A stretch of 64,000 nucleotides of DNA from Clostridia bacterium (GCA_900767715.1 CAAGAD010000005.1:83697-147696), one strand, 5' to 3'; shown: positions 1 through 27,736, counted from the stretch's first letter. Translations and numbers: made by a program. The notes: generated by a model not told the origin, from the sequence alone.

Positions 1-2
1 TC

Positions 3-3000
3 GGCGGTTCTAGCGGTATCAAGTCGGTGAACGTTTCGACATCGGCTGACGGCAGAGTATTCACCCCTGCTGGCACAATCACTCCAACGAGTGAAAGATA
101 TTTATTCGCAGTAGATAATAGTTATGCCGGAAATTATGTGAAATTCACAATCAGTTTCAACATTCCTGCTGACGATATTGAATATGTGGTATATGTCAAC
201 GACAACCTTCTGGTTGAAGAAAAAAATATACCATTTATTCACAACGGCACTCTCACAGCGTATTGTGGCGAGAGTTACAATATTGTTGATTACATTACAC
301 TAAAACATTTCGACGAAGGCGAATACACCAACTATGTGGCAAGTAACGCAACTGAAATTGAACTAACGGATTACATTATTAAAGAGTATCCAACATTTGA
401 CATTTCAACTGAATTTGTATGCGACTGGGCTTGGGTAGATAGCACTCTCAATGTCAGTTATAATGATAAAACAGTGCTTAAAATTGACGTTGTTAACCCA
501 TATAGCATTGTTGAACAGAATGCAGACTACACGCTAAAAGCATTGACGGCGGTTAGACTTGGCGACTTCATCACCGGCGCAGAAATCAAACTGCTCAAAA
601 AGGCAGTAGCATTCGACGCAACCGCGACATACTACAACGCACAAGGTCGCAAAATTGTCGATCCAGTGCCAGCCAATATTGAAGATTACTTCACGTTGGT
701 TGACGGCGGAAACTATGGCATTGAGTTCAAGACAAGTGATGTTTTGAGCAGTACAGACATAAGCGTCGGCACACTCAATGATGAAACATACATCTACATC
801 GGCAAGCAGACAGTTGCCGGCACACTGACCTTTATCGTCGCATTCAACGACAGCGAGGTGGTGCGTCAACAAGCCGACGTGATAGTGAACGTCGAGCCAA
901 ATCTTCCAGACAATTTCATCAAGGCAAATAGAGTAGGCACAAGTGGCAACACAATTGATTTGCGCGACTTTATCAATACTGAATACGGATACGACCGATT
1001 TGAATGGAATGATGTATTGGGCGAACCAGTCAAGGCAGTGGGCAACATAACCCTTGCACAAGAACCTTTCAGTTCAAACGACGTGGCACTTTTGAGTGAA
1101 GACAACAACAAATTTATCGCACCAGAGCCAACCGACCCACGTGGCGACTTGACGCTCACATTCACCGTGAATACCGATTTTGGTTATAGCAAAGACTTCA
1201 CTGTGACGATTCAGTCAGCCACTCAGTTGATTGCAACATATCCAACACACAGCACACGCGAAATCCAAATCGACAACCAACTCGTTACCGTTATGTACGA
1301 GCAAGTGGTCGCTGGTCAAACAGTCAATATGTTTGGCGTTGACGCTGACAACAAGGTTACACGTGTCAAGGCAATGAAAAACGGTACGGAAATCACCACA
1401 CCTTTGGAAATCAAGTATAGTTATCAAGCCGGTCGCGACACGACAGACGTGACAAGTTATATCACAATCAACAATGGCTCAATCACATTCAATGCTGGCG
1501 CTAGCGCACTCTTTGCTCTAACAATTAGCGAACCAGTAAGCCATCGTGAATTGTTGTACTATTTCTATCTAGCACCTAGCGTAAACAAGACATTTACACC
1601 AACTTACAACGGCACCAACACGCAAAACGTTTTGGTTGACAAAGACCACACAACGCTTGACATTGCCAGCCTTTTCGCGTTGACAATCGACGGTGTGGAA
1701 GCCAACAAAACCAATTTGCAGTACGAGATTTGCTATTCGACCAACACACAAACTGCGATAACGGACAGCACACTTACTTTCACAGAATCGAATGTGGAAA
1801 ACGACTACATCGTCGTTATATATGACAATATCTATATATATGGCTATTATAATATACATACCATTCCTAATGTGACAGCGCAGAACACGGTTATCAACTG
1901 GACGCCTGAAACTATCGGGGCGCAACTAGCCAACTTGCCAGAGTTTACCTACAATGGCGGAGTTATGACAATCGCGGAAATCAATGTTGACACCGCTTTG
2001 AGCACATACATTGACATCACCAATGACGCTAGTCGCACAATCACGCTCAAACAGTTCGTTCCAACCACTGTGGCGGGCGTGCTCACATACAAACTCGTGA
2101 TGATGTCGGGAGAAAGTGAAATCGGCATTTACGAGCACAATGTGGCACTCACAATTAATGCAAGACAATATTTCGCCGATAAATACAACGCTGGCACAAA
2201 AGCGCTAGAAGTGACGGCGGGAGACCAATTCAGTCTAACCAATGCGGAATACAACTTGGCTGGGCTCACAGTTGCCGATAATGGCTTGCATTATACCATT
2301 AAGGAAATTAACGGCGTGGCATACAATGGTCAGGATATGGGCGTTTATTACACCGAAGAGAACTTGACTTTCACTTTTAACCCAGTTGCCGACAATGTAA
2401 CATTACATTTCGTCATTGACACCGATTTCGGCTACAAACAAGACTTGTACATCAAGTTGATGGCAGACATCAAATCTGCTATTTACAAGGCAAAGGACGA
2501 AAACGGTCACGAACTGGGCACAGTGTCTAATCCATTGACGATTAACGACCAGTTCACAGAAGCGGAAACACCTTTGTTCGTGTTTAACCGCGCGATTGAC
2601 CTAGCAAACTATTTGTCAATTACATCACGCAAAGATAATGGCGAACTATTGACAGCAGGCAACTTCCGTTTGACTGCAACCATATTGTCCGATTGGGCAA
2701 TAGATAACAACATTTCTGTTGCAGATATCTATTCGTTGGACGGCACAACATTGACATTCGTGCCACTAGCAAGCGAATTAAGACTTGCATTCAAAGTCGA
2801 AATCAAGATGAGCGGGGACACTTACTTCGCTTCGGCGACAATGTTCTACATTACGCTATCTGCCAACTACAATGCGAATGTAAACTACGCATTCGTTGGC
2901 GATACCAGCGAGTTGATTGAGAATGGCAAACAAATTAATTTTAGCAATAGCAGTTTCATTGCAGTTAGAGATAATCTCACTGGCGTTGACAACTATAACG

Positions 3001-6000
3001 CTAAACGTATAAGTTTCTTCTACCCAGCAAACGCTAATAGTGAAATAACCGAATTTGATTACACCAATATTAGCGCTAGCGCTATTAACAAATTGACTGT
3101 CACAGTCGATAGCCAAACAAACACCGACATCACCGCACACATCGACGACAATGGTATAACATTTGACAATGCTACAACTAGCACAATCGGTTCGGTGACA
3201 TTGAGATTCAAGAACCAAGTGGGCATTGATTTGACAATGACATTCAAGATTTACCCAACCAACACACTCGACGCCATTAGTTCAATCAAATACAATGGCA
3301 AAGAGCCAAGTGCAACCAATGACCACGAACTTATCTTGAATAAGAATTTGAACATAAGCAAGGACTACACTATCACGACATTTGGTGATAGTTCGAGCCG
3401 TGTATTGTTTAGATACCCAGCCAACGAAAAGGGCGAGTTCATCGAATCGTTGAAGGCCAAGAGCACAGTTGTCTATGACGAAACAGGCGCTGTACAAGAC
3501 TGCTTCGACGTTCAAATCGATGAAACACTTATCAATATAAAGTTGAAACAAGACAGCGCAGGCAACTGGATTTATCCAGCACCTAAATTGTACACAATCC
3601 ACTTCTTGTCACGTGCCGGTTATTTGGGCAGTTACAAGTTCACATTCAGTCAGGACGTAAACTTCGATAATACTGGTTACAATGTTAGCGAAGGCGAGAA
3701 AATTTACGGCTCACAATCGGGCGTACAGTTGTTGGATAGAGTTGGTATAACACTTTATGAATACACTGCTGACGGTTATGAGTCTAGCCAAATTGATTTG
3801 GTTGACAAGATTTTGACTTCGGCAACCAACGAATACAATGGCTACTCATTGCAATTTGAATCGAACTCACGATACATCACCATTGGCAAGAATGACAACG
3901 GCACGCGTGACGACATTCTCTCATTCACGCAAGTGAGTGCAGACACCAATGCCAGCGTGACAGTCAAAGTTCTCTACAACGGCGTTGTAATTGCCAGTCA
4001 CGACTACAATTTCATCATTCAAGAACACCTAATTGTTTCACTCGGCTATTATAATGATACGACGACAGTTCGCTCAATCGACATCTATATGCGCGATTTC
4101 TACAAAGACAATTTCTACGATGAAACTCTGCCAGATAAGATTGAATACGATTTGACGAATTCATTGAACCCAACAGACGAATTGTTCTTCACACTACGCA
4201 ACGTTTTGCAAGGGAAGTATGGTGACCCTGCAGACTTGAAATTCACAATAGACACCAATGCTTCGACTAGTGGCATCAACAATTTCGTTGAACTAAATAA
4301 CTACAAACTCGTTTTCAAAAAAGACGTGACGGAAGACACACTTTTGGTATTGAACGTAGGCTATCAAGGTGGCACTAGCCGAAAGACATTTAGCATTACT
4401 ATCAAACCAAGCATTGCCGTTAGCCGATATACTGACGGCGGTAGCGGTCAATACATCTATGGCGTAGATAATAGTGGAGTAGATATCTATTCGTTAGACG
4501 ATTTGGTAATTGCCAACACCAACTCACCAAGTAATACATCGCAAGCAGAGATGCCAAAGATTGAAATGAACGACATCAAGACCAATGGCGTTGCTCCTTT
4601 GGCATTGTACACAGTGTCTAAGATGAAAGGTAACACTCCATACACACCACTCGCTGAGGATACAGACGGCTCAGTTAGAGTAGTGTCAATGGAATATGCA
4701 ATGTTTGCTAACGAAGAAGCGTTGAACAACACTTCAACAGGTTACAGACGCGCATCATATACGAAATTGTCTGTTGATTATGCAAGCACCGCGACTATCA
4801 GCGGAAAAAAAAGGCACAACAACTTTAAATTCACCGTGCCTAATGTAAATGCAAATAAGATAATGTCCGTTAAAGTTAAAGTTCGTCTTTTGGGCGGAAA
4901 TTACTACGAGTATTACTACTTCATTAAAGTAAACCCTGCACTAACTCTCGGTGAAAGTAAGAAATATACAGAATTCACGCAGATTTCATTGGCTAAATTG
5001 AAAGCAGATAACGCTGTTGTTGAAACAAAAGCAAATAATAAATACACATTATTCACAGCGAACGGCAAAGATACAAATGCTGCTGGCGATGATGGCGCAC
5101 TATTCTATTGGACGCCTATGCAAAATGAGTTTGGATTCGACAAGTTTAAGAACAACGTAGTCTTCGTCATCACCAATGTTGACAACGGAATAAACAATAA
5201 TGTCGCATTCAGCATTGATAAAGAGAGTGATATCACGCTTTCAATCACATCAAGTGAAGATGGCGGAATGCTCTTCAACAACGCATTGAAGTTTAGACTC
5301 TATGTGTTGGCACTTGATAGCAAAAACCTATTTGAATTCGGTGCAGACCAAATCGTCAAGACTTACACGGGCGCAATTAATAGCGATACACTTGCTTTGC
5401 TAGAAAACAATATGATTTTCGCACAAGATGTTGAGATAAAACCTAAAAAGGAACTTGGCATTTACACAACAGTGTGGGGCGAAATATCTCAGATTCACGC
5501 CATTAGTGACCTTGGATTGCCAATCGACTTGGGCTACACAGACAAGAGATGTCTAATGGACTATGTGTCTGTTGGCAGTGACACCAGTCGCGCAATCGAA
5601 CTAGTAAACGGAAACTTCAAGGGCAACTTGGTAAGCGATTACAAAGGCATAATGAATGGCTTTGACTTCACTGCCGACTATGGCTGGAAGATTTGCGTTG
5701 AAGATGTGACCATAAGTTACTCAAACTTTAAACTCACACGCACATTCAACTATATCGTATCTAACAGTGCTACATTCGTGAAGATTAACTATGCAACATT
5801 TAACGACCGTATCAAGATGACTCCAGAAATCAATGACGGCGTGTACGGCGAAAACAGTCGCGACCTTGCAAGGTCTATTAGCCTTGTGACAGTTGAGACA
5901 AGGTATATTCCTACTGAACCTGACAAGAAGATGAACGACCTTACAGAAACTAACAACGGTCTAACGATTTCCACATCGCTCGGTTCGTCCAAGTTGGGCA

Positions 6001-6398
6001 ATGATACACTTGCCGACAACAGAGTCCAAATCTTCACCAAAGATACCAAATGGTTTACAAAGGTTGATAACAACTATGTTGAATACGCGGGCAAAGTCTT
6101 TGAGTCTGGCGTAACGTATTACTATTACGACGAATACACGGTAACTTATCGCGCATTTGATTTGAATAAGTACACGTTATACGCAGAAGGCACAACCGCA
6201 GACACGGCTGGCCCTGGAATGAACTTGTACATTGATTTGAGCGAATGTTTGGACGGCAACATCTTTACACTCCCATACGAAGCGTGGAAGAGTGAATCGA
6301 TGATTCTCACATTCAATGTTGACGTCACTTACGACGGCACAACTTACAAGTCGCAGATTAGAATTCTAGAAATTACTGCCAAGCCTAATCTTGCATAA
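3..6398 (+). CDS. giant surface/secreted protein, 5'-truncated by window edge (>2,130 aa), unknown family
   Basis: Frame 3 is open from nt 3, with no stop upstream of the track's GTG at 27, to TAA at 6396-6398. Composition is N/T/Y/D-rich and beta-type. A TDFGY(S/K)(K/Q)D motif recurs at nt 1171-1200 and 2415-2447. A hairpin terminator follows. Confidence 0.8.
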   Translation, partial: GGSSGIKSVNVSTSADGRVFTPAGTITPTSERYLFAVDNSYAGNYVKFTISFNIPADDIEYVVYVNDNLLVEEKNIPFIHNGTLTAYCGESYNIVDYITLKHFDEGEYTNYVASNATEIELTDYIIKEYPTFDISTEFVCDWAWVDSTLNVSYNDKTVLKIDVVNPYSIVEQNADYTLKALTAVRLGDFITGAEIKLLKKAVAFDATATYYNAQGRKIVDPVPANIEDYFTLVDGGNYGIEFKTSDVLSSTDISVGTLNDETYIYIGKQTVAGTLTFIVAFNDSEVVRQQADVIVNVEPNLPDNFIKANRVGTSGNTIDLRDFINTEYGYDRFEWNDVLGEPVKAVGNITLAQEPFSSNDVALLSEDNNKFIAPEPTDPRGDLTLTFTVNTDFGYSKDFTVTIQSATQLIATYPTHSTREIQIDNQLVTVMYEQVVAGQTVNMFGVDADNKVTRVKAMKNGTEITTPLEIKYSYQAGRDTTDVTSYITINNGSITFNAGASALFALTISEPVSHRELLYYFYLAPSVNKTFTPTYNGTNTQNVLVDKDHTTLDIASLFALTIDGVEANKTNLQYEICYSTNTQTAITDSTLTFTESNVENDYIVVIYDNIYIYGYYNIHTIPNVTAQNTVINWTPETIGAQLANLPEFTYNGGVMTIAEINVDTALSTYIDITNDASRTITLKQFVPTTVAGVLTYKLVMMSGESEIGIYEHNVALTINARQYFADKYNAGTKALEVTAGDQFSLTNAEYNLAGLTVADNGLHYTIKEINGVAYNGQDMGVYYTEENLTFTFNPVADNVTLHFVIDTDFGYKQDLYIKLMADIKSAIYKAKDENGHELGTVSNPLTINDQFTEAETPLFVFNRAIDLANYLSITSRKDNGELLTAGNFRLTATILSDWAIDNNISVADIYSLDGTTLTFVPLASELRLAFKVEIKMSGDTYFASATMFYITLSANYNANVNYAFVGDTSELIENGKQINFSNSSFIAVRDNLTGVDNYNAKRISFFYPANANSEITEFDYTNISASAINKLTVTVDSQTNTDITAHIDDNGITFDNATTSTIGSVTLRFKNQVGIDLTMTFKIYPTNTLDAISSIKYNGKEPSATNDHELILNKNLNISKDYTITTFGDSSSRVLFRYPANEKGEFIESLKAKSTVVYDETGAVQDCFDVQIDETLINIKLKQDSAGNWIYPAPKLYTIHFLSRAGYLGSYKFTFSQDVNFDNTGYNVSEGEKIYGSQSGVQLLDRVGITLYEYTADGYESSQIDLVDKILTSATNEYNGYSLQFESNSRYITIGKNDNGTRDDILSFTQVSADTNASVTVKVLYNGVVIASHDYNFIIQEHLIVSLGYYNDTTTVRSIDIYMRDFYKDNFYDETLPDKIEYDLTNSLNPTDELFFTLRNVLQGKYGDPADLKFTIDTNASTSGINNFVELNNYKLVFKKDVTEDTLLVLNVGYQGGTSRKTFSITIKPSIAVSRYTDGGSGQYIYGVDNSGVDIYSLDDLVIANTNSPSNTSQAEMPKIEMNDIKTNGVAPLALYTVSKMKGNTPYTPLAEDTDGSVRVVSMEYAMFANEEALNNTSTGYRRASYTKLSVDYASTATISGKKRHNNFKFTVPNVNANKIMSVKVKVRLLGGNYYEYYYFIKVNPALTLGESKKYTEFTQISLAKLKADNAVVETKANNKYTLFTANGKDTNAAGDDGALFYWTPMQNEFGFDKFKNNVVFVITNVDNGINNNVAFSIDKESDITLSITSSEDGGMLFNNALKFRLYVLALDSKNLFEFGADQIVKTYTGAINSDTLALLENNMIFAQDVEIKPKKELGIYTTVWGEISQIHAISDLGLPIDLGYTDKRCLMDYVSVGSDTSRAIELVNGNFKGNLVSDYKGIMNGFDFTADYGWKICVEDVTISYSNFKLTRTFNYIVSNSATFVKINYATFNDRIKMTPEINDGVYGENSRDLARSISLVTVETRYIPTEPDKKMNDLTETNNGLTISTSLGSSKLGNDTLADNRVQIFTKDTKWFTKVDNNYVEYAGKVFESGVTYYYYDEYTVTYRAFDLNKYTLYAEGTTADTAGPGMNLYIDLSECLDGNIFTLPYEAWKSESMILTFNVDVTYDGTTYKSQIRILEITAKPNLA

Positions 6399-6412
6399 AG
6401 GCAAAAGCACAC

Positions 6413-6442
6413 AAAAAAAGTCCATTTTGTTGGACTTTTTTT
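6413..6442 (+). terminator. rho-independent terminator
   Basis: A-run, AGTCCA-ttttgt-TGGACT hairpin, then a T7 run directly after the giant ORF. Confidence 0.7.
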
Positions 6443-6452
6443 GATTTGGGTA

Positions 6453-6481
6453 TTGCAAATTGTGGATTGATATGCTAAAAT
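6453..6481 (+). promoter_or_regulatory. sigma-70-type promoter
   Basis: TTGCAA, 17-nt spacer, TAAAAT, with a TGC extended -10. It lies upstream of the GGAGG RBS at 6495-6499. Confidence 0.4.
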
Positions 6482-6503
6482 AAATCCAAAAGTGGAGGAA
6501 ACT

Positions 6504-9500
6504 ATGGCAATTAGTTCTAAATTTATTCAAGATTTGGCGCGAATCAACGGAGCCAAGGTTGATTTGAGTGATGCAAATGCTGTCAAAGATTGGTTTGATA
6601 ACTCTTCATACAAATATATGGCTGACGCCAGCGCGGACAATAGAAGTTTCGTGGAGCGCATTATCACTGCACTCTTGCTTTTGGGTGACGAAACAGACAA
6701 TGCGGTGGGCTTGACTATGGAAGAGCGCAACAGTGTTATGCGCATTGCTGACGACGCTTCATTAATTGGTAATGGCAGTTATTTGACTGAAATTTTGCGT
6801 CTATTTAGCAAGAAGGCTGGCGACAGAGATTTGGCTAGACCCGACGCTGAACTCAATATGGGCTTTGTTCAATCCCACCTTCACAATTATGGATTTGACG
6901 ACAGAGCCGTTGAAACTATTGTTAAGCGTGGCAACATTAGCGCCAAAGTTAAATTGGTGGACAGTGCGTCAAGAGTTATGCGTACCAACGCTAGCACCAA
7001 GACAATCATTGCCAAGACCAACGATATTGACGATGTAAAAGCAGAAGTAATCGACCTTGCCAAAGACGTTTACAAAAACAGTGGCGCTAGACCAGCATAT
7101 AGCATTAAAGGTATTCCAAACAGAATTTGGACAGACAGCGACGTGACTATCGTTGAAGACGCAGACGACAGAAAAGTGATTGCCAAGTCTAACGGTATCA
7201 AGTCTGCCGAAGAGAGAATTATGGCCGGTACTAGCCACCCATTGACAGGTGTTTTGAAGCACCTTGTTGACGGTCGTGCCAGAGCCGACGTTCAAACTCC
7301 TGACCAAATCATCGACGACATTCAAGCATATTTGTTGATGAATGACCGTTTAACCACAGTCAAGAAAGAAGACGAATGGAACGCCATTCGTAAGGAAATT
7401 GCCGTTGACGCTCGTTTGGCAGTAGATAAGGACGACAACGTTTCTCTCTACACACCTGCTCGTGGTGAAGAATTGAGCTCCAAGGACGACATCAAGAAAA
7501 TTGTTAACATCACCGAACTTGGTTCAGTAGGCATTGAAGCCGGCGCAAGTTTCGTAGGTTATGATATCTCCGACCCAGACGTTCGCGAGGCTTACGAATT
7601 GATGCAACAAGGTTTGCTCAGAGCCAACAACCGTAACGACAAACTCGCAATCAATTTGTTGAACGCACACAAATTGTATTCTAGCGCAGTTGGATTGCCA
7701 GTCAGCCCAAAGACTACCACAGCCAACATTTACGCTAATATGGTTGATGACCCAGAAGGCATTATTGGTAAGGACGGCTTGACCAGCGATATGCGCAATT
7801 TCTTCCGTAAAATCGCCAACAATCCTAACAGTCCATATTACCAAATCGAAATCGACAACGGCGTTGCAGAACAACGTAGCGACAAAAAGATGGGTCTGGA
7901 AATCAACTACATCTTCAAAAACAAAACCAAAAAATTGGTTAAGACCAAATTGCAATTCAGCACACGTTTCATCGGCTATGACGATGAAGGCAAGCCATCA
8001 CTCCTATTGAAGAGTGACGACGCAATCAAGTTCTCTGTAATTCAATCAATGGTTCTTGACTATGTAAGCAACTTTAAAGAAAAGGTAAACAACGTTGACT
8101 TCAAGATTGTCGGCGCTGAAAAAGACAAGGTTCGTGACCCTAATGAACGTGCTTTGATGGCTAACCTTGCTACACAATTCGTTATGATGGGTTACTCGTT
8201 CGGCGACAGCCCAGCACACAAGATTAACGAAGAACTTATCAGCACATATTTGATGGAAAACCAAGCCACCATTTTGGCAGGACTTGCGAAATCGGGCAAA
8301 GACTATGCGGTAGTATTGCCACGCGCATACAAATGGGCTATGAGAGTGGCAGAAATCGTTACTGACAGCCTTGGCATTGACAAGACTATGAAACGTGACT
8401 CTAAAACTGGCAGAATCACCGGCAAGAGCGAACTAGTTGCCAACTTTGAACGCCACGGCTTCACCTTCCCAAGAATGAACTCTAACGATCAACCTTTGTT
8501 CTTGTCCAACGAACAAAAAGCAAGACTTTCTGGCGCTGACTTGAAGAAATACAACGCTGAAGAAAAGCGTTTGCATGAACTAGGCATCACCTCACAAGAC
8601 AGTTTGGGTGCACTTTTGATATCTTGCATTGACACTCAACTTTCACCAAAAGAAATCACTTTTGAACCACAAAATCAAACTGTTAAGCAAGCCGACGAAA
8701 ACAAATTCGAAGACACTCGCGCTAGACTTGCCAACAAGCACGACGCATTGCCAGTCATTGACCCAAGCGTTATTCTTACTGATGATGACTTGACAGAAGA
8801 CACAGGTCTTGACGCAACAGATGTGGAAGAAATTGAAGAATCTCTTGAAGCAGGCAAGCCTAAGACTCCAACTCCAAAGTCAGTAGAGCCTAAGCCAGTT
8901 GAAACTGAAAAGAAAGAAGCCAGCGAAACTGCTCCAAAGACCAGTCCAGAAGACAAGAAAAAGCCTAGAAGCCTATTTGATATGATGACAGACCGTATCA
9001 AGAAGGGTATGGACAAAAAGGATAAGACAGTTCAACCTAAGGAAAAGACCGAAGTTGGCTATTTCTGGGACGAACACAAGGACGCTGGTCCAATGGAACG
9101 CCATTACGAAGAGCGTTCACTTGAAGAGATGAAGTCAGGTAACCTACCTGTAAGAACAAAGAGAACTTACGATGATGTTGAGTTCAGCGATAACACCACA
9201 TCAGCCGAAAATAGACCTGAAGTAATCTATTTGCCAGGCAAGGTAGAAGAAGTTTCAGCCGAAGAAATAACCGAAGAAGACAAAGATGCCGTAATCACCG
9301 GAAAACAAGCATTCAAAGACAGAATGAAGCAAGGTAAGTTGGAAGCACTTTTCAAAGAAAAAGATGAAAAGACACCTACCAAAGAAGCCATTTACGGTTA
9401 TATTGACGGCAAATTCTATTTCGCAATTAGACACATCAAAACTGGTAAGGTAACTGACAGATTTGAAACTGAATTGAGCAAAGCAACTAAGACTAAGATT

Positions 9501-9614
9501 GACAAAGCCCAAGGCGAAGAAAAAGATGCACTCATCGCTAAATACGCAGAGAAAGCAGCCAAGGCTTACAAACAATTTAAGAATGCTAAACGCGATACAA
9601 AAATCGAAAAATAA
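6504..9614 (+). CDS. hypothetical 1,036-aa protein with no signal peptide or TM segment: ~700-aa N-terminal region plus E/K/P-rich low-complexity C-terminal third
   Basis: ATG at 6504 sits 5 nt after GGAGG, so the track's GTG at 6492 lies on the RBS. I recognise no Walker or catalytic motif. PKTPTPKSVEPKPVETEKKE-type tracts begin at about nt 8860. Confidence 0.75.
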   Translation: MAISSKFIQDLARINGAKVDLSDANAVKDWFDNSSYKYMADASADNRSFVERIITALLLLGDETDNAVGLTMEERNSVMRIADDASLIGNGSYLTEILRLFSKKAGDRDLARPDAELNMGFVQSHLHNYGFDDRAVETIVKRGNISAKVKLVDSASRVMRTNASTKTIIAKTNDIDDVKAEVIDLAKDVYKNSGARPAYSIKGIPNRIWTDSDVTIVEDADDRKVIAKSNGIKSAEERIMAGTSHPLTGVLKHLVDGRARADVQTPDQIIDDIQAYLLMNDRLTTVKKEDEWNAIRKEIAVDARLAVDKDDNVSLYTPARGEELSSKDDIKKIVNITELGSVGIEAGASFVGYDISDPDVREAYELMQQGLLRANNRNDKLAINLLNAHKLYSSAVGLPVSPKTTTANIYANMVDDPEGIIGKDGLTSDMRNFFRKIANNPNSPYYQIEIDNGVAEQRSDKKMGLEINYIFKNKTKKLVKTKLQFSTRFIGYDDEGKPSLLLKSDDAIKFSVIQSMVLDYVSNFKEKVNNVDFKIVGAEKDKVRDPNERALMANLATQFVMMGYSFGDSPAHKINEELISTYLMENQATILAGLAKSGKDYAVVLPRAYKWAMRVAEIVTDSLGIDKTMKRDSKTGRITGKSELVANFERHGFTFPRMNSNDQPLFLSNEQKARLSGADLKKYNAEEKRLHELGITSQDSLGALLISCIDTQLSPKEITFEPQNQTVKQADENKFEDTRARLANKHDALPVIDPSVILTDDDLTEDTGLDATDVEEIEESLEAGKPKTPTPKSVEPKPVETEKKEASETAPKTSPEDKKKPRSLFDMMTDRIKKGMDKKDKTVQPKEKTEVGYFWDEHKDAGPMERHYEERSLEEMKSGNLPVRTKRTYDDVEFSDNTTSAENRPEVIYLPGKVEEVSAEEITEEDKDAVITGKQAFKDRMKQGKLEALFKEKDEKTPTKEAIYGYIDGKFYFAIRHIKTGKVTDRFETELSKATKTKIDKAQGEEKDALIAKYAEKAAKAYKQFKNAKRDTKIEK

Positions 9615-9636
9615 CATCTCAAAATAGGGGGAGAGT

Positions 9637-9879
9637 ATGGTATTAACACAAAAGGAATTTGACGAAAAGTGCATTGACCTTATGGAAAAAATCGTTCGTC
9701 TCAAAATCTGCACAATTAAGGAACGTGCTTTAAGCGTGGCAGAAGAGATGATGGTGAAAGCCAAGGCTGAAAAGTGCGACGATGAAACCAAGAAAGTTTT
9801 TGAAAAGGTTATCGAAGAATTTACTAACGTTTCAGCCGAAGATTATGCGACACTTCGTAAACAAATTTTGAATAAATAA
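9637..9879 (+). CDS. hypothetical 80-aa helical, charged protein
   Basis: GGGGGAG RBS before ATG 9637. The gene starts 22 nt after the upstream stop and is followed by a terminator. Confidence 0.6.
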   Translation: MVLTQKEFDEKCIDLMEKIVRLKICTIKERALSVAEEMMVKAKAEKCDDETKKVFEKVIEEFTNVSAEDYATLRKQILNK

Positions 9880-9885
9880 TAATAG

Positions 9886-9921
9886 AAAAGTAGGAATATA
9901 TCGAATATTTCTACTTTTTTT
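9886..9921 (+). terminator. rho-independent terminator
   Basis: AGTAGGAATAT/ATATTTCTACT hairpin with one G-T pair, followed by a T-run. Confidence 0.6.
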
Positions 9922-10104
9922 GTAGCAAAATCGATAGAAAATGTAATGTTTGTGCAAATTTATCAAAAAAACAAATAACTTTATTAGCACAGCAAAAAAT
10001 TCTTTGCGTTTACTTATACACAAAAATTTTGTAATTTTTGACAACAAATAAAAAATTGCTTTTCAAACTTTTTTTGCTATGATATAATACACACAGAGGC
10101 AATT

Positions 10105-10554
10105 ATGGGATTTTTTAGAAAACTTTTGCGTGGGCTAGGAATTGAAACTGAAAATGACAAGAAAAAACAACCTGAACAGCCCGCCGACAAATATGCCAAC
10201 TTCAATATGCATCAGCGCGAAGGCGAGCAGATTGGAACGTACGCGGAAGATATGGTGAACGGCTTTAATTTCGGTCAATCAATGCCAAATATGATTGTAC
10301 AGAAGCCAACGAGCCACCGTGACGTGCAACGTATCGCAGATTTTTTGCGCCAAGGTCAAGCGGAGATTATTGATTTGTCGGGCTTGCAGTCGCAAGATTG
10401 CGGACGCATTTTGGACTTTTTGAGCGGGGCAATATACGCGCTCAACGGGAGTATTTTGCGCATTAACGACAACCAGTTTGTGCTTATGCCAGCGGGTGCA
10501 AAGATTCTCGTGCCACAAGAAGAGAGCACTGCCGTAACCACCACCAACAAATAA
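10105..10554 (+). CDS. sepF: cell division protein SepF
   Basis: The C-terminal DUF552-type core reads MIVQKPTSHRDVQRIADFLRQGQAEIIDLSGL...ILDFLSGAIYALNGSILRI. It sits before lspA-rluD, as in Bacillus. Confidence 0.8.
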   Translation: MGFFRKLLRGLGIETENDKKKQPEQPADKYANFNMHQREGEQIGTYAEDMVNGFNFGQSMPNMIVQKPTSHRDVQRIADFLRQGQAEIIDLSGLQSQDCGRILDFLSGAIYALNGSILRINDNQFVLMPAGAKILVPQEESTAVTTTNK

Positions 10555-16118: not shown

Positions 16119-16379
16119 ATGAGTGAATATGTTTATCCAGCAATAATATATCCAGACAGCGAAGGTCGTGGCTTTACTATCAGCGTACCGGACGTCAATA
16201 TTGTTACAGAAGGCGAAACTGTGGAAGAGGCTTTTTTGCGTGCCAAAGATTTTTTGGCTAGTTACATCGAAGTTTGCAACGAACTAGATAGCGACATCGA
16301 AGGCTCTACATCTTTTGCTGAAACGGCTAAGAAAAACCCTAAACGTATCATTTTATTGGTTGATGCAGACAACGAATAA
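16119..16379 (+). CDS. HicB-like (UPF0150-type) antitoxin-fold protein, no DNA-binding extension
   Basis: YVYPAIIYPDSEGRGFTISVPDVNIVTEGETVEEAFLRAKDFLASYIE matches the HicB N-domain pattern (Y.a.i..d..g.f...P.....G.t.eEA). GAGG RBS before ATG 16119. Confidence 0.55.
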   Translation: MSEYVYPAIIYPDSEGRGFTISVPDVNIVTEGETVEEAFLRAKDFLASYIEVCNELDSDIEGSTSFAETAKKNPKRIILLVDADNE

Positions 16380-16389
16380 GAGGTGAGCG

Positions 16390-16911
16390 ATGGAATACAA
16401 ACTCTGTCTTGAAAATTGGAGTCAATTCGATTTTCTAATCAACAACTTTTACGAAATTGTGGAATACAAGCGCGGACGTGGCGTGTATGGCGACAGAATT
16501 ATTTTGCGCCGACCACGCAATCCACAATCCGTGTTCGCCACACCGGATAAGCAGTACGATTTTTACTACCTTGACGCGCACAACACCAAAGAGTTGCCAC
16601 GCACCACGGCAGAGAAGATTGTGCTCATCACCAAATTTGTTTGCGACCCACAAGCAATGACTCAAATAATTCGCACCGATGACGCCAATGTCATCAGTTG
16701 GTCGTTAAATCTGCGCAAGAAAATGCGCTCTGCCAAATCTATCGACTACAACACTCTCAACGACATTTTGGTGGCAGAATATCACAAGATGTCGAACGAT
16801 TTTTTGGCAAAACTGCACGCTCATCGTCAAAAACAATACTTGCTTGCCAGCAGTGAAGCACTCGGTTTGGTTAGCCCAGAATTTGCCAACAATCAAATCA
16901 AAGTTTTATAA
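16390..16911 (+). CDS. hypothetical 173-aa protein, operonic with the HicB-like gene
   Basis: GAGGTG RBS. It starts 10 nt after the upstream stop. No motif recognised. Confidence 0.6.
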   Translation: MEYKLCLENWSQFDFLINNFYEIVEYKRGRGVYGDRIILRRPRNPQSVFATPDKQYDFYYLDAHNTKELPRTTAEKIVLITKFVCDPQAMTQIIRTDDANVISWSLNLRKKMRSAKSIDYNTLNDILVAEYHKMSNDFLAKLHAHRQKQYLLASSEALGLVSPEFANNQIKVL

Positions 16912-17011
16912 AAGACGCAAAATTTGTGTCTTTTTTTATTTTTATCGTCAAAATGCTTGCTAATTTTTAATATAATTGGTTAAAATAATAACGAAATGCA
17001 AGGAGGTGAAT

Positions 17012-19651
17012 ATGGAATATAATCACGAAAGAAGAAAATTGAGAATCGCGACCTGGATTGTCGTCGCACTACTCATTCTGTCTATCATTGGTGCTTCACT
17101 TTTGTTTGCGTTGAGCAACCGTACCAAGAATAAAACTAAACAGCCTAATGTCGTGAATGTGGGTGACAGTATCTCCAAAAACGGCACAAATAATGTCACC
17201 ATTCCCAACGCAAGCGTGTGGGACGGCACAAGTTCAACTAGTTGGTCTGGTAGCGGTACTGCGTCTAGTCCATATTTGATTAGTACTGCTAGTCAACTGG
17301 CAGGTCTTGCAACTAACGTTAATAATGGTAATACATACGCTGGAAAGTATTTTAAATTAACAAGCAATCTTGATATGGCTGGTGAAGGCTATGCGGATAG
17401 TACAGGCTATGCCTATCTAGACTATGAAACTTACAAGAACTATAAAGTGGGCTCCACTTTTACCGTAGGAAAATATACTTACAAGGTAATAAGTATTAAC
17501 CCACCATCTTCATCAGGTACAGAAATAGTTACGAAAGGACTATGCATTGCCGAGCCAGCGGGCACTTATTCTACCGGCGATATTTTGCAAAGCAGTGGCG
17601 ACGAGTCGGTTGAAGTAATGAGTTCCTACACGGGTAATATGGAAATGGCTGGCTATACCGGTTGGCGTCTAGGTGATTATACAACAATCACCGGTCAAGG
17701 CATTAGTTTCTCCGGCTATGCGCAAATGGTGCACGAGTCAGATTTCCAGAGTGGTGGCTATAATGAAACAGATTTTACTTATATTAATGATTCGTCAATG
17801 GAAGTCTATGATATAACGGTAAACTACTACTCCGGTTCAGATACAGACCCAGGCAGTGTGTATTGTAGTTATACCTATCAAAATGGTAAGGCATTCACTT
17901 CGATTGGTACAAGTTCTACTAAATATTTTGGTGGAAACTTTGACGGTGACGGTCATATAATTGGCAACTTGGCAACCAAGTATAATAGTTCAATATTCGG
18001 TTTGTTCGGCTACGTCAACTCAACAGGTGGCGCAGTAACGATCAAAAACTTAGTTTTAAATTATGACTATGCTGGTGGCAATTATAGTTATTCGTGCAAT
18101 ATATTTGGCGGATTGTGTTGCCAAATTAACACTACATCTTCATATGGCGTAACGATTGAAAATATTACAATCGACTTTGACAGTGGTAGTTATGCAAGTA
18201 CTTCATCTTCCACGAGATATTGTGGCGGACTTGTGGGCAAACACAATGGCGCCAACAATTTGGTTATTAGAGATTGTACGACTACAAAATTAAGTTGGCA
18301 ACATAATTCACCTTTGTATTTTGGTGGTATTATTGGTTACACAGTAGGCGCGACAATAGATAGATGTCAATCTAACTTAAAATCTAGAACAATCGGCAAA
18401 AATCCAACTTCCGACAATAAATATATCGGTGGAATAGTTGGTTATGCAAGTTTGGTAAAGATTAACGATTGCTACTTTAATGGTGAAATTGAAACTAAGT
18501 ATAATGAATCAAATGTAATCAAGGGCATTGGCGGTATTCTTGGCTATGGTTCAGCATATATAGCAAATTGCTTGTTCCAGGGTTCTATCCAATTTGGTGC
18601 GAAATCTGGGTTATCAGTTTACACCGTAAAAGTTGGTGGAATTTGTGGCTCCAACAACTGCTCGACCGCAGGCTATAAATCAATCGTGAACTGCATATCA
18701 AATGGCACAATTAAAAATACTTCTACATCGGTTCAAGCAAAATTTGCAGGCGGTGTAATCACGCCTTATGGCGCAACAGGTACAGGTGCGTTGAGTGAAC
18801 TCGTCGCTGTTTACAACACTAAGAATCATTCACCTAACAATGTGACAACCAGCAGTTCGTACGGCACAAATATTGATTCCAATTTGGCTACTAGTGATAC
18901 ACTTGTTAAATCGGCTTCAACATATGCATCTTGGACTGATTTTAGTTCTCACTGGTCGATAAATGAGAATATAAACAACGGTTATCCTATGCTAGCCGTG
19001 TTCACTCCTGAAGCACAAGTTACAGGCTTTGAAGGTAGTGGTAGTTCTGCAAGTCCTTATCTAATTAGCACTCAATCGGATATGATTGCTTTTGCAAACT
19101 ATTACAACAACAATCCAAAAACTGTATCGGGTGTTTATTGGAAACTCAATGCGAATATTGATATGACTAAGAACGCAAGCAATGTTCTCATTCACTTTGC
19201 GCCAGTGTGTTACAACGGCACATTTGACGGATATTTCGATGGCAATAGCAAGACAATTAGCGGGTTACTCATCGATAAGCAATATCAATACACTGGTTTG
19301 TTCGGCACGATTGCTAGTGGCAGTTATGTCAAGAACCTGACCGTAAACGGAACAATTTATTGGGATCAAACCTATGCGGTTGGCGGTGTGGCTGGTCGCG
19401 TGATGGCTGGTGGATATTTACAGAACTGCGTATTCAACGGCAACATCATTGGCGTACTCAACACCAAATCAAGCACGGAATGTCACGGCGTGGTAGGTAA
19501 GTATGAAATCGGCGGGGCGAATAATTGTTCTGCTACATACATAGAGTTGAAATACGCCAAGATTGGTGGCACAGCAACTGCGCCAACCTACACTTACTAT
19601 TTGTACGATTGGTCGCAAATCACTACCAGATTGTACAATAGTTTGGTTTAG
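17012..19651 (+). CDS. membrane-anchored surface protein with two GLUG-like repeat modules
   Basis: AAGGAGG RBS before ATG 17012, then an N-terminal TM anchor. The header SGSGTASSPYLISTASQLAGLA / GSGSSASPYLISTQSDMIAFA occurs twice. There are many G-G-[ILV]-x-G repeats (YCGGLVGKHNG, FGGIIGYTVG, IGGIVGYAS, IGGILGYGS, VGGICGS, VGGVAGRV). Confidence 0.8.
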   Translation: MEYNHERRKLRIATWIVVALLILSIIGASLLFALSNRTKNKTKQPNVVNVGDSISKNGTNNVTIPNASVWDGTSSTSWSGSGTASSPYLISTASQLAGLATNVNNGNTYAGKYFKLTSNLDMAGEGYADSTGYAYLDYETYKNYKVGSTFTVGKYTYKVISINPPSSSGTEIVTKGLCIAEPAGTYSTGDILQSSGDESVEVMSSYTGNMEMAGYTGWRLGDYTTITGQGISFSGYAQMVHESDFQSGGYNETDFTYINDSSMEVYDITVNYYSGSDTDPGSVYCSYTYQNGKAFTSIGTSSTKYFGGNFDGDGHIIGNLATKYNSSIFGLFGYVNSTGGAVTIKNLVLNYDYAGGNYSYSCNIFGGLCCQINTTSSYGVTIENITIDFDSGSYASTSSSTRYCGGLVGKHNGANNLVIRDCTTTKLSWQHNSPLYFGGIIGYTVGATIDRCQSNLKSRTIGKNPTSDNKYIGGIVGYASLVKINDCYFNGEIETKYNESNVIKGIGGILGYGSAYIANCLFQGSIQFGAKSGLSVYTVKVGGICGSNNCSTAGYKSIVNCISNGTIKNTSTSVQAKFAGGVITPYGATGTGALSELVAVYNTKNHSPNNVTTSSSYGTNIDSNLATSDTLVKSASTYASWTDFSSHWSINENINNGYPMLAVFTPEAQVTGFEGSGSSASPYLISTQSDMIAFANYYNNNPKTVSGVYWKLNANIDMTKNASNVLIHFAPVCYNGTFDGYFDGNSKTISGLLIDKQYQYTGLFGTIASGSYVKNLTVNGTIYWDQTYAVGGVAGRVMAGGYLQNCVFNGNIIGVLNTKSSTECHGVVGKYEIGGANNCSATYIELKYAKIGGTATAPTYTYYLYDWSQITTRLYNSLV

Positions 19652-24401: not shown

Positions 24402-25337
24402 ATGAATAAAAGAGTATTATTGACCGCACTGTGCACGACGGCGTTGCTCGTTCCAGTGGCTGCGGGATTCGCTGGTTGTAAAAAAGATAACGGCTTGAAT
24501 ATCAATGCCAAAGATGTGTACGCGCTTTCCGCATCTGCTAGTGCTAATTATTTGCATCATTTGGACGGAACAAAGGCAACGAAGAGCGTTGCAAGTTTGT
24601 CGCTGGAAGTAGCGAAAACACGTCCATCAGCAATCACAGACACGAATGTGACTGGTATGACAAATTGTTTGGCTATGTTTGATAACTTTATTCAAGGTGG
24701 CGGTGTCAATCAAAATACCAAGAAGAACGATGAAATGGGCGACCTAGGTGCTTATACATTCAAAATGACCATTTCTACACCATCTGGCAATGAATCTATG
24801 ACTATGTATTACAATGAAACCGAAACGGAAACAGAACGCAAAATTGAAGACGAGAAAGAAGAAGTTGAAGTTTCGTCCAAACTTGTTGGTGTTTTGGTAT
24901 TTGGTGACAGTCAGTATGACGTGACTGGCGAACGTGAATTTGAGAGCGAAGGCGATGAAACCGAAGCGTCTATCGAATTTACGACCAAAAGCAAGGTTAA
25001 TCCATTGAACTACATTGTAGTATCTCAATCAGTTGAAAACGAAACCGGCGAAACCGAAATTGAATATGAATACAAAATTTATCGTAATGGCAAACTTGTT
25101 CAAAAGACCGAAACCGAAATTGAAAATGAAAACGACAAGTTTGAACTTGAATTCAAATTCAAAAACGGCACGACATTAGAAAAAACCATTTACAAAATGT
25201 ACAAAGGTTCGGCTGATAATTCTTTCGTAATCAAATACACGATCGACGGCACGACCGATACAATCAACGTTGTTAGAACCGCAACTGGCTACACTTTCAC
25301 ATACACAAATGGTTATGTTGAAGAAGTCAAAGCATAA
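24402..25337 (+). CDS. lipoprotein, E/T-rich beta-type
   Basis: Signal peptide with lipobox AGFAG-C. AAAGGAG RBS. Alternating E-x-E strand-like repeats. Confidence 0.75.
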   Translation: MNKRVLLTALCTTALLVPVAAGFAGCKKDNGLNINAKDVYALSASASANYLHHLDGTKATKSVASLSLEVAKTRPSAITDTNVTGMTNCLAMFDNFIQGGGVNQNTKKNDEMGDLGAYTFKMTISTPSGNESMTMYYNETETETERKIEDEKEEVEVSSKLVGVLVFGDSQYDVTGEREFESEGDETEASIEFTTKSKVNPLNYIVVSQSVENETGETEIEYEYKIYRNGKLVQKTETEIENENDKFELEFKFKNGTTLEKTIYKMYKGSADNSFVIKYTIDGTTDTINVVRTATGYTFTYTNGYVEEVKA

Positions 25338-25394
25338 TTAATGCTGTTATAACTTTTACAGTTACTTGCCTATAACAATCACAAGGAGTATCGT

Positions 25395-26129
25395 ATGAAA
25401 AAGAGAAATTGGATAAAAAGTCTGGCGATCGCGATATGTTTAATTATTCCGGCATTGTTGCTATCAGCGTGCGGAGAAGGTGGCTACATTCCACCTGAAA
25501 CTAGGTACGCATGGGGCAGAACATTCACCTATCAAGGCGCATCGTTCAACGACTATTTGACTATTGGCGGAAACAATGGCACGCCAAGGGGCAAACTTTT
25601 AAAAGATGAATACACCAAAGGCAACTTGGATTTGGCAAACGCATTTATAAATGGAGTAGCGGTTGATTTATCGCAATATAGTGACTTGTCTGCAGATGCA
25701 TTCTTCCAGCACCTTATCAGTATGATGGAATCCAGATTGCACACCATGTGTGACGGCATAACTATTGTGGTCAGCACAGAAGAAGAACTTACTGTTACAG
25801 TCAACAAGAAACCATATAAATTGGTTGAAACTTCCGTAGGATCAAACTATTTCACATTGATTGACGAATCCGCTGTCGGTGGCGCTATTTTATCATGGGG
25901 CAATATGTCTTCGCTTTTGTTGAATAGTAGTGGTGACGGTCAAGAAGTGAACTATGGTCTAGACATTTCCGTTTTCGATGAAAAAATAAACGCTTATGAC
26001 AGAATTTCTACCATTGATGTTACAATTCCGACATTCAAGATTGTCAACGATGAAACGGCTGTATTAATCGACAACAAGTATAGCACTTTATCAATTAGTC
26101 TAAAACCATATTTTAACGAAGCAGTTTAA
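25395..26129 (+). CDS. lipoprotein, paralog A of a tandem pair
   Basis: Lipobox LLSAC. The mature region shares PETRYAWGRTF(T/S)YQG ... (K/T)PYFNE(A/V)V with the next gene. Confidence 0.8.
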   Translation: MKKRNWIKSLAIAICLIIPALLLSACGEGGYIPPETRYAWGRTFTYQGASFNDYLTIGGNNGTPRGKLLKDEYTKGNLDLANAFINGVAVDLSQYSDLSADAFFQHLISMMESRLHTMCDGITIVVSTEEELTVTVNKKPYKLVETSVGSNYFTLIDESAVGGAILSWGNMSSLLLNSSGDGQEVNYGLDISVFDEKINAYDRISTIDVTIPTFKIVNDETAVLIDNKYSTLSISLKPYFNEAV

Positions 26130-26232
26130 ATAGAATAAAAATAGTAAAAGGAAGTTTTATGAAAAAGTTTTCTAGTTTTTTGTTGGCGATATGCTTTTTA
26201 GTTCCGCTAGCGTTGGTTTTGACGGCTTGTGG
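26129..26232 (+). repeat. lipoprotein 5' cassette copy 1 (5'UTR + RBS + signal peptide + lipobox)
   Basis: Hand alignment to 27841-27944 gives 97 of 104 identical positions with no gaps. Confidence 0.85.
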
Positions 26233-26872
26233 TAAAGACGCTCCCGAAACAAGATACGCGTGGGGAAGGACGTTTAGTTATCAGGGCACTGTTATGCACA
26301 ATTTTTACTCTTATGGTGGTAATAACGGCACTGAAAATGGTCAACTCGTGAAGAGCGAATTTAAAAAGAGCAATCTTGATTTGGCAAAAGTGAAAATCAA
26401 TAACGTAACCACTGATTTGTCCGCGTTCTCAAATCTTTCTGCCGACCAATTTTTGCAGGAGATTACTAAACGGGCGAAAGCAGAAATGCAATCATTGTAC
26501 GGCAATATCACTATAAAAGTTGGCACGGAAGAAGAATGCAATGTGACTATCAACGGTAAAGTTTATAAACTGCAAAAAACTGAATTTGACCATAGATACA
26601 ATATTATCGACGAATCCGAATCAGAAACATCTTCAAATAGAGAATGCGGCAATTTAAGTGTAAAACTTTGCCATGACGGTAATAATCAAGACCTAAATTA
26701 TGGGCTTGACATCAGTAAGTACACATTGGACGGCAAAGCGGGTGTTGTGATTAGCTCTGTAACAATCGAGATTCCTACAATAAAAGTTATTGAATATGAA
26801 TCCGCATCGTTTAATGGTACATATTCATATATCACGATTAGCTATACGCCATACTTTAATGAAGTGGTGTAA
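26159..26872 (+). CDS. lipoprotein, paralog B of a tandem pair
   Basis: Lipobox VLTAC. The mature region is homologous to 25395-26129. The 5' end is shared with 27871-28554. Confidence 0.8.
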   Translation: MKKFSSFLLAICFLVPLALVLTACGKDAPETRYAWGRTFSYQGTVMHNFYSYGGNNGTENGQLVKSEFKKSNLDLAKVKINNVTTDLSAFSNLSADQFLQEITKRAKAEMQSLYGNITIKVGTEEECNVTINGKVYKLQKTEFDHRYNIIDESESETSSNRECGNLSVKLCHDGNNQDLNYGLDISKYTLDGKAGVVISSVTIEIPTIKVIEYESASFNGTYSYITISYTPYFNEVV

Positions 26873-27231
26873 GTAGTTACAAAAAAATCCAATTAAATTT
26901 GGATTTTTTTGTTGCTATAGTTGATGGTTGTTTGAGTTTTCAGTTTGCATAAATTGCGCATATTCTTGCGCCAGGGTGGAGAAGCGCTCTCCAAGTAGGG
27001 ATTAACATGCCTCGTCTACGCTCATTTCGTGAGTGTGACTGAGATAGGCTTGAAATTATGTGAGCATTGCTTCCTTTTCTGCTGTGGACCCGAATACAGA
27101 ACGAATTGGGTTTGGCAAGTGATAAATTTTGTTTTTGCAACATTAAAAATATATCAAATTCGGGTGCAATATTATGCGACATATGTTATAATGTTCATAT
27201 AAAATTGCAAGGTTGAGTTTATAATTTGTGA

Positions 27232-27333
27232 CAATATGTAATAGCAAATGCAGTTGAGTTTTTATTAAGCGACAAGGCAAGTTTTATTACTGGTCATATT
27301 TTAACCGTTGATGGCGGATTTAGTTTAATATAA
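27232..27333 (+). pseudogene. 3' remnant of a short-chain dehydrogenase/reductase gene
   Basis: Translates to QYVIANAVEFLLSDKASFITGHILTVDGGFSLI*, the classic SDR C-terminus. An in-frame TGA lies immediately upstream, and there is no start codon or Rossmann region. Confidence 0.7.
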
Positions 27334-27360
27334 AATTATAAACAAAATATTGGAGGAAAT

Positions 27361-27736
27361 ATGGCAAATATAAAAGATGTACACCAATTAGCATTGAAAC
27401 TAGGACTATTTCAAAAACAAATTACGATATAGACATCAAAGATTTGATGTATTCGTTTGAGAACGGACAAAACTCCATTGAGTGCAATGCTTCCTATCTT
27501 GCTGGCGAAAGTTTGAATGTTGTTGCTGATTTTATTAAGCAAACAACATTAATAATACTAAGGATATGCGTAAAAACATTGAAGCAATCATCGATTCGTA
27601 TTCTAGCCTACACACTGGTGCGGAACTTGATGCCAAGCGTTTAGCATATATGAAAGACAAGTTACCACTTTTGTGTCAAGAGGTGGTAAGCAAATTGCCT
27701 GAGTCAATTTCGACAAAGCATAGTGAAAGAGTTTAA
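27361..27736 (+). pseudogene. frameshifted small gene (three frame segments)
   Basis: GGAGG RBS plus ATG 27361 gives 23 codons and then TAG. Reading continues in a second frame (DIKDLMYSFENGQNSIE...) and a third (MRKNIEAIIDSYSSLHTGAELDAKRLAYMKDKL...). A terminator hairpin lies at about 27743-27771. Confidence 0.55.

Follow-up and report, generated by a model that had tools for sequence, protein, structure and literature searches.

Gene organisation of the locus

The DNA analysed here, called the window throughout, is a stretch of 64,000 nucleotides from an assembly labelled Clostridia bacterium (GCA_900767715.1, CAAGAD010000005.1:83697-147696). Its left end holds three adjacent genes, referred to here as the module, which encode a giant protein cut by the window edge (the giant), a protein of 1,036 amino acids (aa) and a protein of 80 aa. 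An initial annotation had described them as uncharacterised genes with a terminator behind the giant gene, another behind the 80-aa gene and a promoter-like site between the two large genes, and had placed the N-terminus of the giant outside the window. This layout holds in every part. Frame 3 is uninterrupted from nucleotide (nt) 3 to the stop codon at 6396-6398, which gives 2,131 codons in the window. The remainder of the gene lies on scaffold_2 of ERZ28570572 in the European Nucleotide Archive (ENA), a 521-kb human-gut metagenome scaffold that matches the window with 0 mismatches over 19,614 nt. There the gene starts 3,388 nt upstream of the window, and the full-length giant has 3,261 aa. 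The second open reading frame (ORF) starts at an ATG at 6504, 7 nt downstream of AGTGGAGGA, and ends at 9614; a mechanical reading from a GTG at 6492 gives 1,040 aa, and the public gene calls give 1,036. The 80-aa ORF (9637-9879) begins 22 nt past the stop codon of its neighbour and has its own ribosome-binding site (RBS), GGGGGAG, just upstream.

The relatives compared below fall into five lineages: the species of the window (loci L001 and L007), a sister species (L002, L003, L004 and L011), a third species (L009 and L010) and two distant lineages (L005 and L006). Could ORFs of this kind have arisen by chance? Relatives as distant as 31% identity retain both length and colinearity, and the proportion of non-synonymous differences (pN) is well below that of synonymous differences (pS), so on comparative grounds all three are real genes. 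The features of the locus are the following.

3-6398 (+): giant gene, C-terminal 2,131 codons plus stop; its start, hydrophobic segment and promoter lie 3.4 kb upstream of the window
4410-6395 (+): hypervariable mosaic distal end of the giant (residues ~2600-3261), from 15 conspecific alleles, the four-gamete test and pS/pN
6412-6443 (+): terminator-like hairpin and U run after the giant gene, from fold energy, pattern scan and conservation
6453-6481 (+): sigma-70-like promoter for the 1,036-aa and 80-aa genes, TTGCAA-17-TAAAAT with a TG extension
6504-9614 (+): gene for the 1,036-aa protein, an ORF for a three-part protein of a clade-confined family
6504-8708 (+): conserved helix-rich domain of the 1,036-aa protein, residues 1-735
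8709-9275 (+): variable acidic, Lys- and Pro-rich linker of the 1,036-aa protein, residues ~736-924
9276-9611 (+): basic C-terminal domain of the 1,036-aa protein, residues ~925-1036
9637-9879 (+): gene for the 80-aa protein, from ORF, RBS and conservation
9885-9919 (+): terminator-like AT-rich hairpin and U run closing the second transcription unit, from fold energy

How is the module transcribed? The hairpin behind the giant gene is stable (-16.5 kcal/mol, z -4.9), is followed by a U run and is kept in four lineages, one of which (L006) carries a G-U change. In the promoter behind it the -35 hexamer is invariant and the -10 element reads TAnnAT in four of four lineages, with the flanking coding sequence at 25-31% aa identity. 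The whole spacer of ~100 nt (6399-6503) is better conserved across the four lineages than either of the coding regions beside it. It retains both terminator and promoter, and therefore the 1,036-aa gene is predicted to be transcribed separately from the giant; the module would then comprise at least two transcription units. The giant has a promoter of its own, TTGACT-17-TATAAT (read at the conspecific locus L007), which agrees with the consensus at 11 of 12 positions. No terminator was found between the 1,036-aa and 80-aa genes, and these two are probably co-transcribed. The hairpin that follows them (-13.9 kcal/mol, z -5.7) also has a U run behind it, and a promoter-like site for sepF lies further downstream at 10060-10088.

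Distribution and rates of evolution

The module has a very narrow distribution. A word-indexed search of 5.8 billion proteins returned 3 clusters for the giant and 6 for the 1,036-aa protein, all of them clade members; for the giant, the reach beyond the clade was assessed by this search only. The N-terminal domain of the 1,036-aa protein was also searched as a profile, exhaustively, against 1.84 billion representatives; this added one further true relative, again a clade member, and a saposin-repeat protein that was a spurious match. Two genomes with the module were found by a scan of GTDB species genomes, both labelled uncultured Clostridia. The module was unmatched in 50,697 phage genomes (tblastn) and in 2.9 million viral contigs. 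Judged by these searches, the module is restricted to a narrow clade of uncultured gut Clostridia.

All five lineages of the clade share the order giant, ~1,000-aa protein, 80-aa protein, down to 31% identity for the giant and 25.5% for the 1,036-aa protein. Wherever the contig reaches, tatD-ksgA lies upstream and sepF-lspA-rluD-tig-clpP-clpX downstream. Since the order is the same in every relative found, the genes of the module are co-conserved. The position in the core genome is fixed in the five lineages, and neither an integrase nor att-like repeats were found at the module. Identity to the window proteins is distributed as follows.

Giant: sister species 60.5%, third species 59%, L005 34%, L006 31%
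1,036-aa protein: sister species 52-62%, third species 55%, L005 27%, L006 25.5%
80-aa protein: sister species 100%, third species 96%, L005 91%, L006 87.5%

For comparison, the neighbouring SepF, RluD, Tig, ClpP and ClpX of the sister species are 97-100% identical and LspA is 94% identical; in L006, SepF is 65.5% and EF-G 93% identical. Nei-Gojobori estimates of pN are 0.24 for the giant gene and 0.28 for the 1,036-aa gene, against 0-0.065 for 17 flanking genes, with 0.003 for sepF. The non-synonymous rate of the large proteins is 5-50 times that of sepF and the other neighbours. At synonymous sites, which are near saturation, pS is 0.75 for the giant and 0.61 for the 1,036-aa gene (range between species 0.61-0.76), with 0.2-0.65 in the flanks. 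A reading in which the giant alleles are much older than the genome was dropped: weakly expressed upstream flanking genes reach pS 0.5-0.65, the excess is small and the sites are close to saturated. The description of the locus as a three-gene module is thus only partly borne out. The genes are adjacent and occur together, but they are not one evolutionary unit (87.5-100% identity for the 80-aa protein, 25-60% for the large ones), nor a single transcription unit.

The giant protein

The full-length giant has a mass of 361 kDa and an isoelectric point (pI) of 4.6, and is rich in Thr, Asn, Asp, Ser and Tyr and poor in Cys and His. Complete orthologs have 3,239-3,261 aa, and those cut by a contig end have >3,283 and >3,298 aa. 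The N-terminus, recovered upstream of the window, reads MFKRIMKIVGLSFCGVVGVFGIIAGVMAIRGDFKK and includes the sole hydrophobic segment of the protein (residues ~7-29). Is this segment a signal anchor or a cleavable signal peptide? It is nearly identical in lineages whose giants share only 31% identity overall, which favours a retained anchor over a disposable signal peptide; the conservation is a hint that the segment stays in place as a signal anchor.

The ~3,230 residues behind the segment are predicted to be almost entirely β-strand. The initial annotation had recognised no catalytic, anchoring or adhesin motif in the three proteins, and systematic searches agree: none of them has a match in Pfam, NCBIfam, PHROGs or PADLOC (E up to 1) or a sequence match in the PDB. 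For the giant, Pfam was blank at E up to 10 with the whole protein, ten overlapping 400-aa pieces and 4-5 orthologs. Neither an LPXTG-like motif nor a C-terminal hydrophobic tail was found in the full-length protein. Pfam and NCBIfam scans gave no SLH, CWB2 or other wall-binding domain, and Pfam scans gave no toxin, RHS/YD, LXG or pre-toxin domain and no known adhesive domain or stalk family. In the scans of all module proteins and their orthologs, a SIR2_2 match (E 0.017) was weak, came from one ortholog only and was set aside as spurious. Confident profile matches to adhesin or S-layer families, which would have assigned the giant, were not obtained; only a generic fold resemblance from a low-confidence model was.

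Internal repeats are absent by self-BLASTP, and DNA repeat finders detected none in the gene. When 45 profile windows of 140 residues were compared all against all with hhalign (946 comparisons), one weak pair exceeded 80% probability. Structure prediction was made with AlphaFold2 (AF2) from alignments of four or five sequences, the most divergent ortholog being left out. For the last 1,150 aa the model consists nearly throughout of β-strand and is of low confidence (mean predicted local distance difference test, pLDDT, 41.4). Foldseek searches with this model returned multi-immunoglobulin (Ig) and cadherin-like arrays with E values down to 1e-8 and TM-scores of 0.2 or less; over all lists the TM-score stayed at or below 0.28. 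The top PDB matches were the S-layer proteins SbsB (E 6.5e-8), Sap and SbsC, and the viral list was led by BIG2/Ig-like proteins, which matched equally well. The model is read only as suggesting a string of β-sandwich domains, with no family membership implied.

The giant varies unevenly along its length. Between species, identity is 91% over the first 150 residues and declines along the chain to 48% at its end. Within the species the change is abrupt: 15 conspecific giants from different metagenomes differ at 0.3-2% of residues per 200-residue block up to residue ~2600, and beyond it the mean pairwise aa difference is 9-12% (maximum 29%). The last ~660 residues are thus 5-40 times more variable within the species than the remainder. 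How does this diversity arise? Variable sites are grouped into alternative haplotype blocks, differently combined from strain to strain, and the four-gamete test is failed by 47% of the informative site pairs. In two strains the last 560 codons have pS 0.28 and pN 0.085, against pS 0.03-0.09 and pN up to 0.013 elsewhere; since pS and pN rise together, the tip appears to carry imported segments. Comparison of the alleles shows homologous recombination between strains to be reshuffling the last ~660 residues. A diversity-generating retroelement is excluded because the template repeat is absent (no direct repeat of at least 30 nt in window 1-10200); no reverse-transcriptase domain was found among the neighbour genes scanned either. 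The extreme C-terminus (FTLPYEAW and the final residues) remains conserved and can be aligned in all lineages, which rules out the swapping of toxin modules. Variation of this kind is classic for the portion of a surface protein that is exposed, interacting or antigenic.

The 1,036-aa and 80-aa proteins

The 1,036-aa protein (116 kDa, pI 5.6) was annotated as signal-less, and this is confirmed: no signal peptide, transmembrane (TM) segment or other hydrophobic segment was found in it. The AF2 model of residues 1-732 is helical and unreliable (pLDDT 46.7), and nothing was matched by a fold search with it. Codon adaptation was scored against composition-matched simulations, since the raw index favoured Lys/Glu-rich proteins, and the 1,036-aa gene still stood out. 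Its observed/expected ratio is 1.25 (z 8.7), close to that of trigger factor and the highest of any non-reference gene in the window; it ranks first in two other lineages as well. Because its codon usage is like that of abundant proteins, the 1,036-aa protein is inferred to be abundant.

Within the species this protein is 99% identical, with pN/pS 0.07; between species it diverges about as much as the stalk of the giant. Its C-terminal ~110 residues occur in the sister species in two very different forms (L011 1624-4608 and L002 19863-22919). One is practically identical to the window (9276-9611) and the other can barely be aligned. The presence of both in one species points to cross-species recombination at the 3' end of the gene.

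The 80-aa protein behaves in another way. It has two conserved Cys and no TM or signal-like segment, and gave no significant family or PDB match; an OS-D match of 21 bits, below the cut-off, was spurious. A metagenome scan with it returned only one conspecific 2-kb contig. Its conservation exceeds that of SepF, and it therefore does not evolve in step with the genes beside it. The 80-aa protein evolves like a housekeeping gene product and, by this measure, is probably not the specificity partner of either large protein.

A proposed surface fibre or coat and its alternatives

What would such a module do? The reading preferred here, at a probability of roughly 0.55, is that it encodes a lineage-specific surface fibre or coat, tethered at its N-terminus, with a recombining hypervariable C-terminal end and a co-conserved, probably abundant partner. 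In the proposed mechanism the N-terminal segment of the giant would insert in the membrane as a signal anchor, and the chain would project outward as a string of Ig-like β-sandwich domains. The C-terminal end would be the exposed tip, contacting a ligand, host antibody or phage, and because of this exposure it may be under diversifying selection. The giant would then be a fibrillar adhesin or coat fibre of reverse polarity to the usual Gram-positive design. The 1,036-aa protein may be its abundant structural partner, as a scaffold, an assembly factor or an unconventionally exported component. The initial annotation had proposed an envelope, surface or division-associated system; for the giant the surface part is favoured by the hydrophobic segment, the pI of 4.6, the β-rich Ig-like model and the hypervariable distal end.

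Several points weigh against the surface fibre or coat. The residues VMA-I at positions 26-29 of the giant are compatible with a signal-peptidase site, and if the segment were cleaved after VMA the giant would need another attachment. The Ig-like reading is drawn from secondary structure and generic Foldseek matches, as the models are of low confidence (pLDDT 41 and 47). The codon adaptation of the giant is average (observed/expected 1.01), which speaks against a very abundant coat. The within-species pN/pS of the giant is 0.22, that is, below 1, and positive selection is inseparable from relaxed constraint between species because synonymous sites are near saturation. Lastly, abundant cytoplasmic proteins normally evolve slowly, and the 1,036-aa protein, which lacks an export signal, would be unusual in evolving this fast if it is abundant.

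The main rival is an S-layer-like coat, in which a regular lattice on the surface would be built by the giant, the 1,036-aa protein or both; it is judged unlikely, though less so than any other rival. The giant is conserved proximally and variable distally, and such a combination of conserved attachment and variable exposed regions is paralleled by the SlpA cassettes of Clostridioides difficile and by Sap/EA1 of Bacillus anthracis. The PDB matches led by SbsB, the acidic Thr-, Asn-, Ser- and Tyr-rich, Cys- and His-poor composition and the near-consensus promoter point the same way, as does a fast-evolving 1,036-aa gene with the codon usage of abundant proteins. However, the fold match is generic, because cadherins and viral Ig-like proteins match the model equally, and the giant has no SLH, CWB2 or other wall-binding domain. 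Typical S-layer proteins are far smaller than 361 kDa, and the giant combines this size with average codon adaptation. The 1,036-aa protein, with no signal peptide and a predicted helical structure, is unlike known S-layer proteins.

Are the two large genes functionally related at all? The giant could be a surface protein, and the 1,036-aa and 80-aa genes a separate operon for an abundant cytoplasmic structure, cytoskeletal or scaffolding, whose adjacency is mere synteny. This is somewhat less probable again than a lattice. It would agree with the separate transcription units and the conserved terminator and promoter between them, with the missing export signal and with a within-species variation of the 1,036-aa protein (99% identity, pN/pS 0.07) that is unlike that of the giant. 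Adjacency itself is weak evidence, because the whole gene order from tatD to fusA is conserved in the clade. Against mere synteny, the two large genes diverge in parallel (60/52, 59/55, 34/27 and 31/25% identity for giant and partner) in a region where all other genes are far more conserved, and both families share the same extremely narrow distribution.

The surface fibre or coat can also be taken a step further. Giant and 1,036-aa protein may build a new envelope structure, composed of a fixed-length non-repetitive ectoprotein of ~3,250 residues, anchored by its N-terminus, and an abundant helical protein that reaches the surface, or organises it from inside, by a route without a recognisable signal, the two co-evolving fast and serving attachment to host surfaces or other microbes. 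This specific version is speculative and is considered a little less likely than unrelated neighbours.

The remaining explanations fare far worse. A role in cell division had been suggested by position, on the expectation that the region upstream of sepF would hold distal dcw/ylm genes. The module does lie directly upstream of sepF in all lineages, and its 80-aa protein is conserved like core genes. But the upstream neighbours are tatD-ksgA instead of dcw/ylm genes, a terminator and a separate promoter precede sepF, and a weak FtsN-like match belongs to another protein, with no division-related match for the three module proteins. Both large proteins also evolve far faster than SepF, at the 5-50-fold non-synonymous rate given above, unlike core division machinery; the association is very improbable. 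A polymorphic toxin or contact-dependent inhibition effector with immunity encoded downstream, suggested by the size of the giant, its recombination-shuffled C-terminal end and the genes directly behind it, is largely refuted: the extreme C-terminus is homologous in all lineages with no swap to unrelated modules, variation covers ~660 residues and not a discrete cassette of 100-300 aa, no toxin-related domain was found by the Pfam scans, and the 80-aa protein, at 87.5-100% identity, lacks the co-variation expected of an immunity protein. Equally hard to sustain is a prophage remnant with a tail-fibre-like giant, or an anti-phage defence system: a hypervariable receptor-like protein and a low-confidence model resembling viral Ig-like proteins might suggest either, but the phage, viral, PHROGs and PADLOC searches were blank and the site is a fixed core-genome one lacking integrase and att-like repeats.

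If the giant is indeed the fibre or coat proposed, it would be the main surface-exposed, strain-distinguishing structure of an uncultured human-gut Clostridia lineage. Adhesion, phage sensitivity or antibody recognition would then probably depend on it, and it would lend itself to strain typing in metagenomes. A 361-kDa probable surface protein with no known domain, repeat or anchor motif also exposes a blind spot of domain-based adhesin surveys. The 1,036-aa protein, with its abundance read from codons, would run counter to the rule of slow evolution in abundant proteins.

Other genes around the module

Several genes outside the module were recorded. Upstream (L007 1-9700, L002 541-9700) lie tatD, ksgA and two Gate-domain genes resembling spmA/spmB, and a Peptidase_M73 (camelysin/TasA-like) gene is one of a further trio there. 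In the window species, though not in the sister species, the region also carries a gene pair for a cysteine desulfurase and NifU.

Downstream of the module, window 16119-16911 (+) holds an 86-aa gene, weakly HicB-like, and a conserved orphan of 173 aa, between clpX and a gene for an 891-aa orphan (16976-19651, +). For the 173-aa protein, identity is 93% to the sister species and 68% to L006. The 891-aa protein has an N-terminal membrane segment and GLUG-like GG[IL]xG repeats, with a sub-threshold match to Pfam Glug (E 0.065). Identity to the ortholog of the sister species is 49%, next to neighbours at 93-100%, and the gene is missing between the 173-aa gene and rpsL in L009 and L006. The protein seems to be another surface protein that evolves fast and is tethered at its N-terminus.

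Four orphan genes are clustered at 24402-28554 (+), encoding proteins of 311, 244, 237 and 227 aa with similar lipoprotein-signal-like N-termini; two are paralogs with 45% identity, and none has a Pfam family. At 39647-40487 (+), smpB is directly followed by the tmRNA gene, with the tag peptide ANNNNVAVAA. The 458-aa orphan encoded at 41955-43331 (+) combines a membrane segment at the N-terminus with a long acidic, coiled-coil-like stretch, and its gene has the second-highest codon adaptation among the non-reference genes.

Comparison with known systems

Which known systems does the module resemble? The closest functional class is that of the fibrillar adhesins (PMC8286594, PMC9210967), whose definition calls for one or more known adhesive domains or Pfam stalk families (PMC8286594). 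Nearly half of them have no recognisable anchor, and those of Firmicutes usually carry the adhesive domain at the N-terminus and a sortase anchor at the C-terminus (PMC8286594). The giant shares with this class a single very long, acidic, fast-evolving chain, probably made of many β-sandwich domains, and a functional end that is proposed to point outward. In contrast, fibrillar adhesins have known stalk or adhesive domains and tandem repeats and vary in length with repeat number, while the length of the giant is near constant. Its polarity would be inverted, with an N-terminal anchor and a C-terminal variable end, and it has a conserved partner gene. The giant may therefore be said to work like a fibrillar adhesin, though on repeats, known domains and anchor type it falls outside the class as defined.

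S-layer proteins offer a second comparison. SbsB, SbsC and Sap are the top fold matches of the low-confidence model and are similar in composition. The slpA cassette of C. difficile, which acts as a phage receptor (PMC8809339), has a conserved attachment side, a variable exposed region and strain variation by recombination, as would the giant. The giant differs in the lack of SLH and CWB2 domains, in being 3-5 times larger than typical S-layer proteins and in its average codon usage.

A third parallel is with recombining surface antigens, in line with the hot regions of homologous recombination described elsewhere (PMC4866539). As in these antigens, variation in the giant is concentrated in a segment proposed to be exposed, in mosaic haplotype blocks with four-gamete failures. 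This is an evolutionary pattern rather than a protein family, and it is silent on the molecular function of the giant.

The arrangement of the two large genes also recalls a pair from Mycoplasma mobile, a relative of the Firmicutes. Gli349 is a surface protein of ~3,200 aa with an N-terminal membrane segment and ~100-aa repeats, and beside it is encoded Gli123, of ~1,100 aa, with a membrane segment. Sizes and adjacency are similar, but the giant has no ~100-aa repeats and the 1,036-aa protein no membrane segment. No sequence relation to Gli349 or Gli123 turned up in the searches made, and the 1.84-billion profile search with the 1,036-aa query returned only clade members. The resemblance is no more than a loose analogy.

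Big surface proteins that evolve quickly are widespread among uncultured bacteria. Less ordinary in the giant, compared with these, are the absence of repeats together with a near-constant length, the apparent N-terminal tether and the sharp boundary of variability within the species. Least ordinary of all is its proposed partner, the fast-evolving, codon-adapted 1,036-aa protein with no export signal.

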